A stretch of 36,546 bases of DNA, taken from Candidatus Jorgensenbacteria bacterium RIFCSPHIGHO2_02_FULL_45_20. Its GTDB lineage: Bacteria > Patescibacteriota > Minisyncoccia > UBA6257 > GWB1-50-10. Numbering within the stretch: the first letter of the stretch is position 1; every line of letters begins with the position of its first letter. Both the position numbers and the translations under genes were made by a program. The stretch spans positions 1 through 36,546 of the forward strand of contig MFKJ01000003.1 in NCBI GenBank assembly GCA_001779535.1, read 5' to 3'. Shown here one piece after another: positions 8,147 through 36,546 of this stretch. The notes below the pieces were generated by a model that saw only the letters and a program-made list of their open reading frames with translations, made no database searches and had not been told where the DNA came from.

Positions 8147-8162
8147 TGTTTCACGTGAAACA
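8147..8162. promoter_or_regulatory. parS: parS site (ParB/Spo0J binding)
   Basis: perfect palindrome TGTTTCACGTGAAACA. Confidence 0.92.
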
Positions 8163-8223
8163 TTTTTTACAACAAGCTGGTAATGCGATGAAACCTACAT
8201 TTCTTGAAAAACGCACTTGAAAA

Positions 8224-8239
8224 TGTTTCACGTGAAACA
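8224..8239. promoter_or_regulatory. parS: parS site (ParB/Spo0J binding)
   Basis: perfect palindrome TGTTTCACGTGAAACA. Confidence 0.92.
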
Positions 8240-9008: not shown

Positions 9009-10250
9009 ATGGACACAAAATCATTAACCGCGGCCATCAATCAGATTGCCTCGGAGAAGGGAATATCTCCGGATAAGGTTCTCGCGGCCGTTGAGGTGGC
9101 GATAGCGGTTGCTTATAAAAGGGAGTATAGAAAAAAAACCGAAGTAATCCGCGCCAAATTCGATTTGACTACGGGCGGTATGAATTTCTTCCAGGTCAAG
9201 ACCGTGGTGTCTCCGGATGAGGTGCGGGTAGTAAACGACGCGGAACAAGGTGAATACGAAGAGGAAAAAGGAACCGCGTTAGCGGAAAACAGCGAGGATG
9301 AATCGCTTTTGCCGCGCTATAATTCAGACAAACATATCTTTTTGGAAGAGGCGAAAAAGATAAAACCGGACACAGTGCCAGGAGAAGAAATGGATTTTCC
9401 GCTCGAATCACACGACGATTTCGGAAGAATAGCGGCGCAGACGGCAAAACAAGTCGTGCTTCAAAGTATCAGGGAAGCGGAAAGAAAATCCATACAACAG
9501 GAATTCGTGGGCAAAGAAAGCGAGGTCGTAAGCGGCATTATTCAGCGCTTCGAGAGGGGAAATGTTTACGTTGATTTGGGACGCGCCGTGGGAATCATGT
9601 TCCCGAACGAAAGCATTCCGAGCGAACACTACCGCGTTGGGCAGAGAATGAAGTTTTTCGTACTCGCGGTTCAGGACGATCCGAGGCGTCCGGGAATAGT
9701 GCTTTCGCGCGCGCATCCGAAATTTATCGTTAAACTTTTCGAAACCGAGATTCCGGAAATGGCGGAGGGCGTTGTTGAAATAAAAAACGTAACCCGTGAG
9801 CCGGGAAGCCGCGCCAAAGTCGCGGTTGCCTCGAATAACGAAAGCGTTGACCCCGTAGGCTCGGCCGTAGGCCAGCGCGGTATGAGAGTTATGGCGGTTA
9901 CGAATGAACTGGGTAATGAAAAAGTGGATATCGTCGAATGGTCCGAAGATCCGGAAAATTTCATAGCGAGTTCTCTTTCTCCGGCCAAAGTGAAATCGGT
10001 TGAACTGCTCGCGCGCCGCGAGGCCCGCGTGATTGTCGCCGAAGACCAACTGTCGCTTGCGATAGGAAAAGGAGGGCAGAACGTGCGCCTTGCGGCAAAG
10101 CTCACCGGATGGAAAATAGACGTGCGTTCGCAATCGAATCCCGACGAGGTACAGGAAGGAGGAGTAGCGACCGCGCCGGCGTCTACTGAAACCGTAACGC
10201 CACATGAAGGTTCTTCGGAAACGACAGAAAATAAAAACGTCAAAGAATAA
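9009..10250 (+). CDS. nusA: transcription termination factor NusA
   Basis: [13 protein letters not shown]1 and KH domains ([41 protein letters not shown]); AAGGAG upstream. Confidence 0.98.
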
Positions 10251-32308: not shown

Positions 32309-32412
32309 TCAAGCGCTCCATCCCTTTCGGCTGTGCGGTTACATTCATTACTTTATATCTCCATAGCTTTAGAGAAAGGAATAGTGGAGTTAACGTGGTG
32401 GACGCACACGCC

Positions 32413-32475
32413 GCATAAGTTCAGATACATATATTCTCATCTTTCGATGAGTGCCATATGTATCTGAACTTATGC
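32413..32475. repeat. perfect 20-bp inverted repeat with nested hairpin
   Basis: gcataagttcagatacatat (32413-32432) / atatgtatctgaacttatgc (32456-32475); inner ctcatc-tttc-gatgag. Confidence 0.9.
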
Positions 32476-32481
32476 AACTTT

Positions 32482-32964
32482 TCAGAAGTTTCTTGAAATA
32501 TATTTAGGGACAATACCCAAACTTAAATATCTCTGTTGAATATCTCGTGGTAAATATTTGAAATCTCTGATGCGATGACGGCAGTTTTTACTTCTACATT
32601 CGCAATCCATTTCCCAATCATTTTCATCCATTGTCGTAGAATAATCCCAAGTTATTTCATCGCCCTCATTTATTTTTTCTACCGCTATCAGAAAAACCTT
32701 TTTACTATTAATTTTCAATCCGGTATTAGGACTACACGAATGATTAAAATAATCATCTATACCGCCCGATGGCCCCATATACAAATTTTCTCCTAATTGA
32801 ACATAATGATCTTCGACTCCATTGTAGGGCGTTGGCAATTCTTTATAAGTAAAAAACTTTCCGTGAAATTCAAAAATTATTTCGCCCTTACCGAATTTCT
32901 TAATGGCAAAAACCCCTTTACCATTTTGAGTATTTTTAACGACAAGATTTTTTTCACTTTCCAT
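32482..32964 (-). CDS. SET domain protein-lysine methyltransferase
   Basis: GKGVFA, NHSCSPN, EITWDY and post-SET CECRSKNCR; own ATG at 32964, in frame with the upstream HTH. Confidence 0.9.
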   Translation of the reverse strand: MESEKNLVVKNTQNGKGVFAIKKFGKGEIIFEFHGKFFTYKELPTPYNGVEDHYVQLGENLYMGPSGGIDDYFNHSCSPNTGLKINSKKVFLIAVEKINEGDEITWDYSTTMDENDWEMDCECRSKNCRHRIRDFKYLPRDIQQRYLSLGIVPKYISRNF

Positions 32965-33175
32965 GATATATTTCATTAAATCATCAATTGAAACACCCAA
33001 CCCTTTGGCGATTTTTGCCATGGTTTCAATTGTAGGATTCAGCGTTGCGCCGGACTCAATCTTAATAATTACATTGTAAGCAATATCAGCAAGCTTCGAG
33101 AGTTTATCCTGCGAAATATCCAGTTTTTCTCTGTACTTTTTGATATTCTTCGCAATTGTTGGTAATTCTTTGCAT
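32965..33175 (-). pseudogene. XRE-family HTH regulator, in frame with SET; natural start appears frameshifted
   Basis: IAKNIKKYREKLDISQDKLSKLADI...IESG...NPTIETMAKIAKGLGVSIDDL; the ATG at 33175 is out of frame and there is no stop before SET. Confidence 0.6.
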
Positions 33176-33278
33176 AAATCCTTGGAAAATATTAAACTTA
33201 AATTAGTTTTTATACGGTTAAAGATTATCATACATTCGTATAAGATATAATATTTAAGTGTATTTATGAAAACACTTC

Positions 33279-33297
33279 GTATAAAAATGAGTTGTGC
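33279..33297 (+). mobile_element. attI-like recombination site
   Basis: GTATAAA-AATGA-GTTGTGC has the same geometry as the attI1 core (CCCTAAA-ACAAA-GTTRRRY) and heads the cassette array. Confidence 0.55.
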
Positions 33298-33353
33298 GAC
33301 ATTTGTTCGCGCGCCTAGATAACTTTTTATAACACTATAAATTACTTTATTGT

Positions 33354-33935
33354 ATGGAAGATAGAATTAATAAAATACTCTCTTTTTTGCAGGAGATTGA
33401 AAAATACAAAACCGTTGAAAGAGAAATGTTTTCTTCAAACTTAACTAGAACAGAAAGTGATGCCGAACATTCTTGGCACTTGGCAATGTTTTTGCTTCTC
33501 TTTGAAAAAGAGCTTCCGGAAAATCTAGATATGAAAAGAATGCTGAAACTCGCCTTAATGCACGATTTGGTAGAAATTTATGCAGGAGATACTTTTGCTT
33601 TTGATAAAGAAAATCAAGCCACAAAAAAAGAGCGCGAGTTTCAGTCAGCGAAGAAGCTCTTTTCCCAACTGCCAGAAGATTTACATAAAGAATTTGACGA
33701 TTTATTTAGTGAATATGAAGAAGTAAAAACCTCTGAAGCAAAGATTGTGAAATCTTTTGACAAAATACAACCAATTCTCCAAAATCTTTGCTCTGATGGA
33801 AAATCTTGGAAAAAACACGGCATCACTTTCTCGGATATTGATGAATATAAAAGAAAACACATGGAACACAACGGTTTTGTATTAAAAATATATGAAAAAT
33901 TACTGAATGATGCAAAAAAGAGGGGTTTGATTTAA
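33354..33935 (+). CDS. HD-domain phosphohydrolase (YfbR/HDDC2-like)
   Basis: ESDAEHSWHLA, LMHDLVEIYAGD, SFDKIQP. Confidence 0.9.
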   Translation: MEDRINKILSFLQEIEKYKTVEREMFSSNLTRTESDAEHSWHLAMFLLLFEKELPENLDMKRMLKLALMHDLVEIYAGDTFAFDKENQATKKEREFQSAKKLFSQLPEDLHKEFDDLFSEYEEVKTSEAKIVKSFDKIQPILQNLCSDGKSWKKHGITFSDIDEYKRKHMEHNGFVLKIYEKLLNDAKKRGLI

Positions 33936-33994
33936 CGGCGCGCTCACAAACGCAAGGGGACGCTGCGCTTTCGTCGCTATCGCTCCTCACCCTC

Positions 33995-34096
33995 GTATAA
34001 CAAGGGATAAAAGGAAAATTGCTCGGCTCGCCCCTCACCCAAATTTTTCTTCCACTCCGTTCCAGAAAAACTTCAGACGATGCCGATACGTTAGCT
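33995..34096 (+). repeat. attC-like site 1 (possibly hybrid)
   Basis: GTATAAC...GTTAGCT; stem tcggctcg/cgatgccga with one extra base; inner tttttct/agaaaaa. Confidence 0.55.
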
Positions 34097-34182
34097 GAAA
34101 TATTAAAAAATTCTTTTCGGCCCCTGCGGGGCATTTAATCGGGACAAAATTATTTTTTTATTTTTTTGAACTCAACAAACAC

Positions 34183-35325
34183 ATGAACGAAAAATACATT
34201 CCATCAAAAGAAGAAATAGAGCTAGCTGAAGAAATTGCTGTGGAGGATCATATGACTTCTGAACAAAAAAGTGATTCTGAATTTAGGGTTAAAAACTGGG
34301 AACAAGAGCAAGCGCCCTGGGTTCCATTTGACGATGACGATATTGATGAAAATTTTGAACGTAAGCCAGCTACTCCTGAACAAAAAGAAGATATGGATAG
34401 AAGATTAGCGGAGCTTGCTGACGCTTTCGAGGGTTCAGATATTAATTGGCACATGGACGGTGCTTTGAATGTTTCTTTAATGAATGGTGGATATATTGGA
34501 AATCATAAAGATGTAGATTTATCAATTGAAAAAAACGAACTTGCAAAACTTGAAGCTCAACTGCTCAAAAAAGGATTCGGATTATTTTTATCAAGAACTG
34601 AGGACAAAACAAAAAATAAAGTAATGCGAAGAGCCGGACATGCTGATTTTGCAGATTCAGACACCGAACATATGCTTATTGCCGCAATCGACGAAAATGG
34701 CCAAATCAGGAGAGATAAATCTTTAAATTTTGTTGACACGCATATTGTCGAAAGAAATGCAGACGGGCAAGCGCTTGGAAATTCGGGCGTAGTAATACCA
34801 GATAAATGGACAAAACCTTATCCCGTTGAATTTCAAGGAAAATCAATCAATTTATCACATCCAGGCAAGGTTTTGTATTACAAATTACACCAAGGGCGAG
34901 GTTATGACACTACTGACATCCAACGATTAGTTGAAACTGGAAAGGTTACAGAAGAAGATGTCGCGGATGTAGAAAAAGTATTTGAAAGCGAGTTTACTGC
35001 AAACATTGTACGTGGACGGAAAGTATTTGAGGCGGTTGCAAAACAATTAATGCCAGAAATGAATACCGACCAGATTATTGATGTTATTTTGCAACAGCGT
35101 GAATTAACAAAAGGAGGTGAAGAAGCACGAGAATTTTTTAGGCCGTTTGCACAAAAAATTTTTGAATCAGATGACAAGACAACGGATGCGATGTTAAAAA
35201 TTGGAATTGAATTATTTAAAGTTGAAGAAAAAGATAATCAAAAACGTGAGGAAATTAATCGAGTTAGACAAGCAGTCGTTGACGCGCAAAAATTAAAACA
35301 GATTCGGGAGGAATTAAAAAAATAA
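34183..35325 (+). CDS. nucleotidyltransferase-fold protein (ANT(2'')/Lnu-like N-terminal domain)
   Basis: WHMDGALNVSLMNGGYIGNHKDVDL resembles the W-x-x-GG...H-x-DxD signature; helical C-terminal extension. Confidence 0.6.
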   Translation: MNEKYIPSKEEIELAEEIAVEDHMTSEQKSDSEFRVKNWEQEQAPWVPFDDDDIDENFERKPATPEQKEDMDRRLAELADAFEGSDINWHMDGALNVSLMNGGYIGNHKDVDLSIEKNELAKLEAQLLKKGFGLFLSRTEDKTKNKVMRRAGHADFADSDTEHMLIAAIDENGQIRRDKSLNFVDTHIVERNADGQALGNSGVVIPDKWTKPYPVEFQGKSINLSHPGKVLYYKLHQGRGYDTTDIQRLVETGKVTEEDVADVEKVFESEFTANIVRGRKVFEAVAKQLMPEMNTDQIIDVILQQRELTKGGEEAREFFRPFAQKIFESDDKTTDAMLKIGIELFKVEEKDNQKREEINRVRQAVVDAQKLKQIREELKK

Positions 35326-35393
35326 AAAAATAATTTTGCCCCGATTAAATCTTTTGTCTAACGACAAAAGCGAAAAGAATTTTTTAATACATC

Positions 35394-35468
35394 AGCTAAC
35401 ACGCAATATCCGCAAGGGCTAAGGCCACATCCGCTAAGGCGGACGTCGGATATTGCGAAACGTTATGT
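35394..35468 (+). repeat. attC-like site 2
   Basis: AGCTAAC...GTTATGT with perfect 11-bp stem cgcaatatccg (35402-35412) / cggatattgcg (35447-35457). Confidence 0.75.
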
Positions 35469-35506
35469 GCAATAACTTTTAAGGGTCATACGCTTACTAA
35501 ACAATA

Positions 35507-35923
35507 ATGCGTGAAACTAATATAGTTGAAAAGTTTCTTGCGTCAGTTATCAATGTGGCTGTCGTCGGGATAGTTTTCTTTCCATTTATATTTTCAGATG
35601 TTAGCTCATTGATAAAAAAACTCATTCTCATTGTCATATTTCTGCTTTATAATCTACTTGTTCTTATATTCAACAAGAATAGGTGTATTGGAATGGTGTG
35701 TCTCAGGACAAGGTGGAAAGAAAACTATCCATTTGTTAACCAAGCGATCTATATATTGCTGTACACGCTTAGCTTTTCAACTCTTTTGTTTCATGTATAT
35801 TTCCTGTTCGATTTATTTTTGTTGAATATGATTTTTCTTCAGCTCCCCATGGTGGTATTGAAAAAGAATACCTTGCATGGTTATTTATCTGGCAAGATGA
35901 TTACTGTAAAAACGAGCCCTTAA
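35507..35923 (+). CDS. RDD-like membrane protein
   Basis: hydrophobic helices; KFLASVIN, RCIGM and NTLHGYLSG echo RDD-family motifs. Confidence 0.55.
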   Translation: MRETNIVEKFLASVINVAVVGIVFFPFIFSDVSSLIKKLILIVIFLLYNLLVLIFNKNRCIGMVCLRTRWKENYPFVNQAIYILLYTLSFSTLLFHVYFLFDLFLLNMIFLQLPMVVLKKNTLHGYLSGKMITVKTSP

Positions 35924-35970
35924 AAATTACATCCGACTTTTTAGTTTTGCTGTAATTTAGAGTATAATGA

Positions 35971-36050
35971 GATTAACAATTAAGTAAGAATATTAAGGTT
36001 TTGTGCCTAGAAACCAAAGTGCAGGACTTCAGATATTCTTAACGTTATGT
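35971..36050 (+). repeat. attC-like site 3
   Basis: GATTAAC...GTTATGT with 9-bp stem taagaatat (35985-35993) / atattctta (36033-36041). Confidence 0.6.
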
Positions 36051-36118
36051 GAAATAGCCAGAAATTTCTTTGTTATTTTAGAATTTTTTGGCAATTTATT
36101 TCGGTCGAACATAGCTTG

Positions 36119-36127
36119 TGATATAAT
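36119..36127 (+). promoter_or_regulatory. extended -10 promoter inside cassette 4
   Basis: TG-A-TATAAT, with AAGGA RBS before the ATG at 36160. Confidence 0.55.
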
Positions 36128-36159
36128 TTAAGCGTTTAATAATTATTAAGGAAAAAACT

Positions 36160-36384
36160 ATGTCAGAACAACAAAAAGGTTTTGAAGGAAAACCTGAAAG
36201 TCCTTCGCCAGAAGAAGAAAAAAAGGAATTGTCTTTATCCCCCAATGAAGTGCACACGATGTCATATCTAATAGATAGAGAATTACTAGACTTAAAAAAA
36301 GAAAAGAGACCAGACGATGATGATTATACAAATAAGTTGAAGCAATTATTTTTAAAATTGCAAGGAAGAGAGTTTGATAGCTAA
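36160..36384 (+). CDS. small charged hypothetical protein (74 aa)
   Basis: ORF with RBS, sitting exactly between the inverted arms of cassette 4. Confidence 0.7.
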   Translation: MSEQQKGFEGKPESPSPEEEKKELSLSPNEVHTMSYLIDRELLDLKKEKRPDDDDYTNKLKQLFLKLQGREFDS

Positions 36385-36546
36385 TCTATAAATAAATTGC
36401 CAAAAAATACATTAAGGAAAAGAAATTTCTGGCTACATCACATAACAGCGTGTATCTGGATACGGAAAATTGGCGCAAAAATCAAAAACCCCGATGCAGA
36501 GCATCGAGGTATGATCTCTTCGTTTAGAGTAAATCGAATAGAGTAG

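Follow-up and report, generated by a model that had tools for sequence, protein, structure and literature searches.

The 36,546-nt contig MFKJ01000003.1 of Candidatus Jorgensenbacteria bacterium RIFCSPHIGHO2_02_FULL_45_20 (hereafter, the window, which is the whole contig) belongs to a genome of the candidate phyla radiation (CPR) type, assembled to 608 kb in 31 contigs. The final 3.3 kb of the window consist of four units with a single open reading frame (ORF) each, all in one orientation. Every unit, here called a cassette, opens with GTT(A/G), closes with (T)AAC, and has ends that form inverted repeats; neighbouring cassettes are separated by hairpin cores of 61–106 nt. We found that the paired ends of such cassettes, in the window and in related loci across the CPR, share a defect at a fixed place: positions 10 and 11, counted from the first G of the arm, do not form Watson–Crick pairs in stems that are otherwise well paired. 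On balance, this defect is likely to be a conserved structural mark in the recombinase-binding arm, which would serve in the recognition of the folded site and in the choice of strand.

The mismatch in the terminal arms

Cassettes 2 and 4 show the defect in its simplest form, in that the only two mismatches of their terminal arms lie at positions 10 and 11, where AA in the left arm faces CA in the right arm. In cassette 2 (34090..35400, plus strand), which carries a 380-aa nucleotidyltransferase-like gene at 34183–35325 (PF10706, 34 bits), the left arm reads GTTAGCTGA-AA-TA from 34090 and the right arm TA-CA-TCAGCTAAC to its end at 35400; the arms at 34090–34119 and 35371–35400 are 93% complementary over 30 nt, with the mismatch at 34099–34100 opposite 35390–35391, and a second arm pair (34133–34167 and 35316–35350) is 97% complementary over 35 nt. 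In cassette 4 (36044..36446, plus strand; 74-aa ORF at 36160–36384), the left arm starts with GTTATGTGA-AA-TA at 36044 and the right arm ends at 36446. Here the terminal arms (36044–36071 and 36419–36446) are 93% complementary over 28 nt, with the mismatch at 36053–36054 opposite 36436–36437, and the second pair (36083–36101 and 36390–36408) is perfect over 19 nt. The 2-nt mismatch at positions 10–11 that the original prediction had read from this DNA was therefore borne out in both cassettes. Its further statement, that AA faces CA at the same offset from the G in cassettes 2, 3, and 4, holds as worded for cassettes 2 and 4 but for cassette 3 only by way of the outer stem. In cassette 3 (35462..35937, plus strand; 138-aa membrane-type ORF at 35507–35923), AA at 35471–35472 and CA at 35930–35931 are in register with the outer stem (TAACTTTTAAGGG versus CCCTTAAAAATTA, 12 of 13 positions paired), and the right arm has degenerated over its last 9 nt (TCCGAC), which are no longer complementary to the left end. 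The ORFs of cassettes 3 and 4 matched no family.

Cassette 1 (33291..34001, plus strand), with an HD-domain gene at 33354–33935, has a 9-nt inner stem and the left end GTTGTGCGA-CA-TTTGT..GCGCGCC at 33291. The CA at 33300–33301 lies opposite a 42-nt module at 33951–33992, beyond which the outer stem (33302–33315 and 33937–33950) is formed, so that the right arm runs in the order GGCGCGCTCACAAA (33937–33950), 42 nt (33951–33992), and TCGTATAAC (33993–34001). These arm coordinates agree with the predicted break after nucleotide 9, with CA opposite a 42-nt insert. The predicted coordinates were wrong by up to 3 nt in places (the G of R' lies at 35462, and the TAAC of cassette 2 ends at 35400) and otherwise correct.

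We searched 135 recombinase-linked loci and the window for pairs of arms with GTT and AAC 60–5000 nt apart, at least 5 of 6 positions paired at 4–9 and at least 11 of 13 at 12–24, with positions 10–11 left free; reversed sequences served as controls, pairs were counted non-redundantly, and the site and arm statistics are anchor-based counts. This search yielded 50 pairs versus 29 in the controls. Both positions 10 and 11 were unpaired in 36 of the 50 real pairs, only position 11 was unpaired in seven, and neither in the remaining seven, whereas both were paired in 26 of the 29 control pairs. When nine pairs starting with GTTT or GTTC, which appeared to be unrelated inverted repeats, were dropped, 41 pairs starting with GTTR remained (the GTTR subset); position 11 was unpaired in 39 of these and both positions in 35. 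Pairing in this subset was complete (41/41) at positions 1–5 and 9 and amounted to 33, 40, and 37 of 41 at positions 6, 7, and 8; it fell to 6/41 at position 10 and 2/41 at position 11 and was 34–41/41 at positions 12–23. The triplets at positions 10–12, given as left arm/complement of the right arm, were AAT/TGT in 28 pairs, CAT/TGT in five, AAT/AGT in three, AAT/AAT in two, and AAT/TGC, AAT/CGT, and CAT/CGT in one each.

The 39 cassettes unpaired at position 11 came from 32 loci of diverse CPR lineages, ranged in length from 373 to 1924 nt, and had unrelated outer stems and genes. They share the fixed offset, and the claim of the same defect in otherwise unrelated stems thus held well beyond the window. 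A larger set of cassette ends had also been proposed as a check against random mismatch positions; with 35 of 41 pairs unpaired at both positions and 26 of 29 control pairs paired there, the positions are not random. The metagenome loci alone contributed 19 new non-redundant pairs, 13 of which were of the R' type by eye, and all 13 were mismatched at position 11.

The arms at the cassette-end sites

Cassette-end sites were detected from inner features only, with the arm flanks excluded: CC(C/A)(A/T)(A/T)AT, A(C/A)(T/A/G)T(C/T), a 9-nt L''/L' complement with no more than one mismatch, and flanking AAC and GTT. The first set yielded 34 sites on the expected strand and one on the opposite strand, and the second set 39 (of which 37 were new) and four, respectively; in total, there were 73 expected-strand matches (71 after deduplication) versus five on the opposite strand. 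The 71 sites are imperfect hairpins with R and L half-sites and AAC/GTT, and their L'' and L' are complementary with variable sequence. Over these sites, the 3' arm reads G-T-T-A(56)/G(14)-n-n-n-G(51)-A(44)/C(18)-A(57)-A(69)-T(61), and the complement of the 5' arm reads G-T-T-A-n-n-n-G(68)-A(51), followed by T (35), C (19), G (13), or A (4) and then by G (44), C (22), A (3), or T (2). Watson–Crick pairing in the array context was found at position 10 in 4/71 sites and at position 11 in 4/71, compared with 50/71 at position 8 and 33/71 at position 12. The base opposite A11 was C in 44 sites and G in 22, so that position 11 is A.C on the top strand, or T.G on the bottom strand, in 44/71. Positions 5–7 paired in 33–41 of 41 pairs within a cassette versus 27–40 of 71 sites between neighbours; because pairing is far better within cassettes, this places the presumed crossover to the left of position 4, at G|TT as in integrons.

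The original prediction had located the mismatch on the gene side of the R box, and here it must be corrected. The conserved arm is 11–12 nt long (GTTRnnnG-A/C-A-A-T, with A11 in 69/71 and T12 in 61/71), which places the defect within the arm that the recombinase binds, at the outer end of that arm. In their 3' halves (A-C-W-T-C-nnn-T-A-W, 7–10 nt, G-TT-R-nnn-G-A-A-A-T), the sites contain two inverted 11-nt arms, the first of which pairs at its outer end with AWAT of the motif CCCAWAT. This L box covaried over the 71 sites: CCCAAAT occurred with ACTTC in 47 sites and with ACTTT in two more, and CCCATAT with ACATC in 19, with one exception and two other forms. A constant A.C mismatch directly adjoins the covarying pair. 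The two half-sites therefore have the defect in common, one or two positions in from the arm's outer end. Single-nucleotide bulges of the classical type were not seen in the sites, which instead have one fixed mismatch per arm and a bulged hairpin plus TCACCC in L''.

The right arms fall into classes, namely ACATC, with the 2-nt mismatch, and ..CTCACCC-TC or ..TCGGG-TC. In the CTCACCC/TCGGG class, 16 of 36 candidate pairs have a perfect 12-nt outer stem that restarts at left position 12 after a right-arm insert of 41–82 nt, and the outer stem of window cassette 1 restarts likewise (10 of 12 paired). The type of break that had been noticed in cassette 1, 2 nt opposite an insert, thus recurs in 16 further cassettes. 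The inserts are related across loci and fold weakly; they form a pyrimidine-rich module (..ACG(C/T)TGC(G/A)CT(C/T)TC..) that ends in CTCACCC or TCGGG and lies at the 9/10 seam of the right arm. The window copy is the one at 33951–33992, and further module-bearing right arms were found in loci L037, L043, L044, L050, L051, L057, L063, L068, L091, L106, L111, L114, L117, L120, L130, and L137. Across these classes, the left-arm bases 10 and 11 are never paired: they lie opposite two mismatched bases or opposite a bulged module. The 3' end of the module resembles the L-box bulge.

Other elements of the arms and sites were noted in passing. A recurrent left-arm module, in which a TTCTTTT run precedes a small GC hairpin whose loop is of the CTATCGC or CTTCGC type, is present in the window (34090–34132) and in loci L021, L026, L029, L038, L041, L051, L058, L063, and L066. 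Locus L033 contains a mini-cassette (at about 9660–9750 in reverse-complement coordinates) with perfectly paired 12-nt arms around a short loop and no gene, followed by a simple 19-nt GC hairpin site in place of the branched core; this simpler second site type also occurs in L051.

Strand bias of the folded sites

When each site was folded with its 13-nt arms and DNA parameters, the bottom strand was more stable than the top strand in 66 of 71 cases and equal in one, with mean fold energies of -22.6 versus -19.7 kcal/mol (Wilcoxon p 1e-12). The same was true of the arms alone joined by a linker, for which the bottom strand was more stable in 36 of 39 cases (means -17.5 versus -16.6 kcal/mol, p 4e-6). 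Among the other mismatches in the stems, top-strand A.C was found 16 times versus top-strand G.T four times, alongside 27 mismatches of other kinds. These data favour folding of the bottom DNA strand, which is the situation in classical integrons, over a structure in sense RNA. The accessible part of PMC5027507 attributes strand selectivity in classical attC sites to extrahelical bases.

The associated recombinase

The recombinase associated with these arms was reached through a pattern search in 61 relatives, which gave matches in nine genomes; these were mostly chance matches (14 real versus 14 control), and only genome G053 was informative. There, the left arm of cassette 4 lies directly beside a divergently oriented 271-aa tyrosine recombinase. 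Searches with this protein retrieved 57 loci in genome contigs, nearly all labelled as Patescibacteria/CPR, and 78 loci in metagenome contigs, and when 8,000 candidates were scored for its family, at least 4,409 protein clusters matched at E <= 1e-60. Some members carry the NCBI name 'site-specific tyrosine recombinase/integron integrase'. The best solved relative is VchIntIA (2A3V, E 1e-49), with an alignment in two pieces (residues 9–167 and 193–270); the recombinase has 25 residues where IntI4 has 68. Its score with TIGR02249 is 226 bits in two stretches, under the cut-off of 265, whereas its alignments to XerA and XerC-like structures are continuous from end to end. What defines an integron integrase is an extra domain in the region of patch III, a criterion that PMC9668308 credits to Messier & Roy. 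As judged by the broken alignment with 2A3V and the sub-cut-off TIGR02249 score, the CPR recombinase lacks this IntI-specific domain.

The related loci have the layout of an integron platform, with a divergent recombinase, a docking site, and one-way cassettes. An R'-type arm was present within 230 nt upstream of the recombinase gene in 34 of 44 loci, counting three at 5–33 nt that look spurious; in five of the 10 loci without it, less than 125 nt of sequence was available. The docking region upstream of the recombinase contains two copies of a TTCGTATAA-type motif, the last of which is followed by ..AAACGA|GTT.

The array in the window

Neither a recombinase of this family nor a remnant of one was found in the assembled genome of the window, in which the sole relative was the Xer gene beside rpsO (32% identity). 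The recombinase was found in three of 60 relatives and in 0 of 36 genomes from the window's own family, and DNA similarity to five relatives, of which four share the genus and one belongs to a neighbouring genus, stops at about 32310. Because of the missing remnant, the rarity of the recombinase among the relatives, and the end of the similarity, the segment from 33232 to about 36462 is, on sequence grounds, an acquired and now integrase-less copy of an integron-like array common in CPR/Patescibacteria. An insertion boundary could not be drawn from the synteny of the five relatives (the neighbour gene in G003 maps inside another contig), and the rest of the array was not found on the other contigs of the window genome. 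One match to a dif-like site with the same arms was obtained in this genome; it lies inside a 629-aa ORF and was judged to be a chance match.

The slot occupied by the recombinase in the related loci holds an HTH-SET gene in the window (32482–33231, minus strand). A candidate attI-like docking site follows at 33232..33290 (plus strand), with a copy of the direct-repeat motif, ACATTCGTATAAGATATAA, at 33232–33250 and an L-arm plus spacer, CACTTCGTATAAAAATGA, at 33273–33290, abutting the first crossover G at 33291; its assignment is based on related loci, which have the same two-motif layout in the interval from the recombinase gene to the first cassette. Behind the HTH-SET gene, a perfect 19-nt inverted repeat (CATAAGTTCAGATACATAT and its complement, 32414–32475) bears a likeness to the docking-site repeat motif and may represent either a terminator or the distal boundary of the acquired element. 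No Rfam family matched the arms or sites; two matches to microRNA models, far below threshold, fell on the palindrome at 32408–32478. Short palindromes of the GTT(T/C)CACGTG(A/G)AAC type, found as inverted pairs at 8148–8238 of the window and in several copies in loci L027 and L039, bear no relation to the cassette arms and appear to form a repeat family of their own.

The first cassette-end site, which is attC-like in its core (34002..34089, plus strand), is chimeric: its 5' half and its CCCAAAT/ACTTC motifs are intact, and L' (34075–34089) is not complementary to L'' (34003–34015). The second (35401..35461, plus strand) is a 61-nt branched hairpin between TAAC and GTTA, with fold energies of -19.4 kcal/mol for the top strand and -21.1 for the bottom strand. 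The third region (35938..36043, plus strand) has a hairpin core with L'' TAAGAATAT, L' ATATTCTTA, and an ACTTC arm, and a G-C pair (CCAAAGT/ACTTC) replaces the L-box mismatch. Only the start of a fourth site is present, the L''-like AGCGTGTATCTGG at 36447..36462 (plus strand); because the CCCAAAT/ACTTC motifs were not found downstream of it, the array probably ends at about 36462. A terminator-like hairpin lies beyond, on the minus strand at 36510–36488, and a scan for promoters and terminators showed no enrichment, with 12 promoter-like sites versus 11.9 expected.

The arms of cassette 4 are nearly identical to those of the first cassette in two other genomes (L033:3340–3826, minus strand, and L005:1551–1721). 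The likeness extends over about 95 nt on the 5' side, including a -10-like box of the TGTGATATAAT type, and over about 55 nt on the 3' side in L033, the only full-length one of the two. The ORFs of window cassette 4 and L033 do not align, and L005 ends about 50 nt into its ORF. The shared arms look like a conserved non-coding cassette 'chassis' for different genes. Sites and arms are multi-copy in the communities sampled by four public metagenome runs, in which the summed contig depth was 70–800 at the cassette-end sites (high-depth regions 33976–34127, 35952–36103, and 36408–36546 of the window) versus about 6–21 in the cassette bodies, and in which contigs break at the sites, with depths of 500–800 at the breaks. 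Joints across cassettes 2 and 4 in these runs had short sides (24–42 nt) and 90% likeness and may derive from other organisms. Site 1 of the window matches a common community site up to 34074 (..AACTTC), after which the community contigs carry a complementary L'.

A proposed structural mark in the recombinase-binding arm

Integrons are the textbook case of recombination via folded single-stranded DNA, which is held to be enabled by the extra domain of IntI together with extrahelical bases. In the system proposed here, each cassette has the 3' arm of a recombination site (G|TT-R-nnn-G-A/C-A-A-T) at its start and the 5' arm (mostly A-C-A-T-C-nnn-T-A-A-C) at its end, and these arms would meet only in the excised circle, where they would close an R-box stem that extends into the cassette-specific outer stem. 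Positions 10–11 form the outer end of an 11-nt Xer-like recombinase-binding arm and are kept non-Watson–Crick, presenting A.A and A.C on the top (coding) strand and T.T and a T.G wobble on the bottom strand; in many cassettes, the conserved 41–82-nt module is bulged out at the same point instead, and the L box carries the same A.C/G.T feature at the equivalent position of its arm. The compact IntI-like recombinase may then read the fixed helix defect as a structural mark by which a folded site is told apart from duplex DNA and the bottom strand is preferred, so that the defect would stand in for the extrahelical bases read by the extra domain of classical IntI, which is absent from the CPR recombinase. 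We infer this role because of the A.C mismatch on the top strand (T.G on the bottom) in 44/71 sites, the greater stability of the bottom strand, the A.C mismatch in the L box, and a recombinase without the IntI domain; the conservation of the defect, its position, its presence in both half-sites, the strand bias, and the lack of the domain were observed directly, and the reading of the defect by the enzyme is the step that goes beyond them. On comparative grounds, the role in structural recognition or strand selection that the original prediction had suggested has good support.

Several observations weigh against this role. Two of the 41 GTTR pairs are fully paired at positions 10–11, one in L030 with perfect 30-nt arms and one in L114, where a 249-nt pair nested in another cassette looks like a chance match, and the gene-less mini-hairpin of L033 is fully paired there as well. 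The base opposite A11 is G in 22/71 sites, a mismatch on both strands, and the wobble is therefore not the whole story; at the L box, site 3 of the window has its G-C pair. The gain in energy of the bottom strand is modest, about 1 kcal/mol for the arms alone. In the window genome, which has no cognate recombinase, the feature is a relic that cannot act, and the case for the role is drawn from conservation and folding energies. Lastly, each arm has a conserved sequence of its own (AAT or CAT on the left; TGT, as complement, on the right in 33/41), so that the mismatch could have arisen as a by-product of two distinct constraints. The 3' arm (..AAT) would be kept as a duplex binding arm at the docking site and the junctions, and the 5' arm (..ACA..) would differ in order to avoid a second inverted duplex site and long palindromes, with the enzyme indifferent to the mismatch. 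The likeness of L'-spacer-R' on one strand to a complete duplex core site, a layout shared by the docking site, fits such an origin. However, the facing bases vary by class (ACA, GGG, CCC, or a 41–82-nt bulge) and the lack of pairing is constant, meaning that the conserved thing is the defect and not one sequence. Moreover, the L box has this defect too, next to a pair that covaries, and the covariation of the 5' and 3' halves and the strand-specific wobble bias both indicate a folded single strand. We accordingly regard a by-product as unlikely, if worth keeping in mind.

The seam at 9/10 could also mark the gain and loss of the accessory module (41–82 nt, ending in CTCACCC or TCGGG), of which the mismatch would be a remnant. 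The module does lie exactly at this seam in 16 cassettes and in window cassette 1, with the outer stem restarting at left position 12, and the modules are related across loci; but the left bases 10 and 11 are near-invariant (A11 in 69/71) with or without the module, and a neutral scar would drift to pairing in stems that are otherwise 90–100% paired, which makes this origin improbable. It is highly improbable that the arms act at the RNA level, pairing in cassette transcripts between the 5' and 3' untranslated regions or in processing or termination, with the mismatch as a determinant of RNA processing. The arms are indeed non-coding and flank each ORF, but the defects of the sense strand are A.C and A.A rather than G.U, the wobble bias favours the antisense strand, Rfam holds no matching family, and promoter- and terminator-like sites show no excess. 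For the three or four cassettes of the window, chance or recent shared ancestry might have been entertained, but such an explanation is refuted by the arm-pair data, with 39 cassettes from 32 loci of different CPR classes with unrelated outer stems and genes, and with reversed controls that are paired at 10–11 in 26 of 29 cases; its probability is practically nil.

Starting from a structural mark in the arm, a wider proposal can be put forward only tentatively: that a branch of CPR recombinases without the IntI domain reads, at positions 10–11 of an 11-nt arm in both half-sites, either a bulged module or a fixed non-Watson–Crick pair (G.T/T.T on the bottom strand), that this branch is large and undescribed, that its solution differs from extrahelical bases, and that it operates on a non-coding chassis with an outer stem formed only in the circle. 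A full-text literature search, which did not extend to subscription journals and supplements, found no description of integrons or integron-like arrays in CPR. In their accessible parts, PMC11386340, PMC9024848, PMC9668308, and PMC13323075 describe no such array, and the accessible part of PMC9024848 does not mention CPR. If the proposal is true, the circle-only outer stem would let the enzyme separate free from arrayed cassettes, and different ORFs in one chassis would hint at how new cassettes arise, just as arms common to different ORFs bear on the origin of integron cassettes. A very large recombinase family with the genetic logic of integrons, without the IntI domain, and with a different and sharply conserved structural mark in its site would offer a handle on the evolution of structure-specific recognition from a Xer-type enzyme. 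The 12-nt arm pair with its fixed mismatch is also a practical signature for cassette boundaries in the annotation of CPR genomes.

Comparison with known systems

Classical attC sites consist of an R box, an L box, extrahelical bases, and an unpaired central spacer, and their folded bottom strand is recombined by IntI, as in the VchIntIA–VCR structure (2A3V). The CPR system resembles the classical integron in its divergent recombinase, its docking site, and its one-way array of mostly single-ORF cassettes, in the AAC/GTT cassette ends with a presumed crossover at G|TT, and in the complementarity of the start of each cassette to its own end. Like classical attC, its sites are imperfect hairpins with two inverted half-sites, whose unpaired features differ between the strands and whose bottom strand is more stable. 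In contrast to classical integrons, the recombinase is without the IntI-specific domain, and the cassettes carry outer stems of 12–60 nt that can be closed only in the circle. The sites depart from classical attC in that the conserved arm is 11–12 rather than 7 nt long and in that the core folds as a three-way branched hairpin in which CCCAWAT and ACWTC are conserved. Where attC is marked by two or three extrahelical bases near L'', each arm here has at its outer end either a fixed mismatch or wobble or else a large module that is bulged out. The window array, with its cassette-end sites and no cognate recombinase in the assembled genome, is comparable to CALINs (attC clusters without an integron integrase), but it keeps a docking-site-like region and its sites are not of the classical attC type.

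As in Xer/dif systems, the 11-nt arms of the sites are paired in inverted orientation, and their sequence presumably recalls a XerD-type dif arm; the recombinase, for its part, can be aligned without a break to XerA and XerC-like structures. Modules mobilized by Xer recombinases are known from the pdif modules of Acinetobacter plasmids. Unlike Xer/dif sites, however, the CPR sites have an L'–R' spacing of 7–10 nt rather than a fixed 6 and form long covarying hairpins, and unlike pdif modules, the cassettes are not flanked by inverted complete duplex sites. A pdif module or duplex Xer site would have two 11-bp arms with a fixed centre of 6–8 bp, and this reading is ruled out by the variable spacing and the covarying hairpins. 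The system works like an integron yet fails the defining IntI test, and its sites differ from known ones in their 11–12-nt arms, fixed mismatch, branched core, bulged modules, and cassette-borne outer stems.

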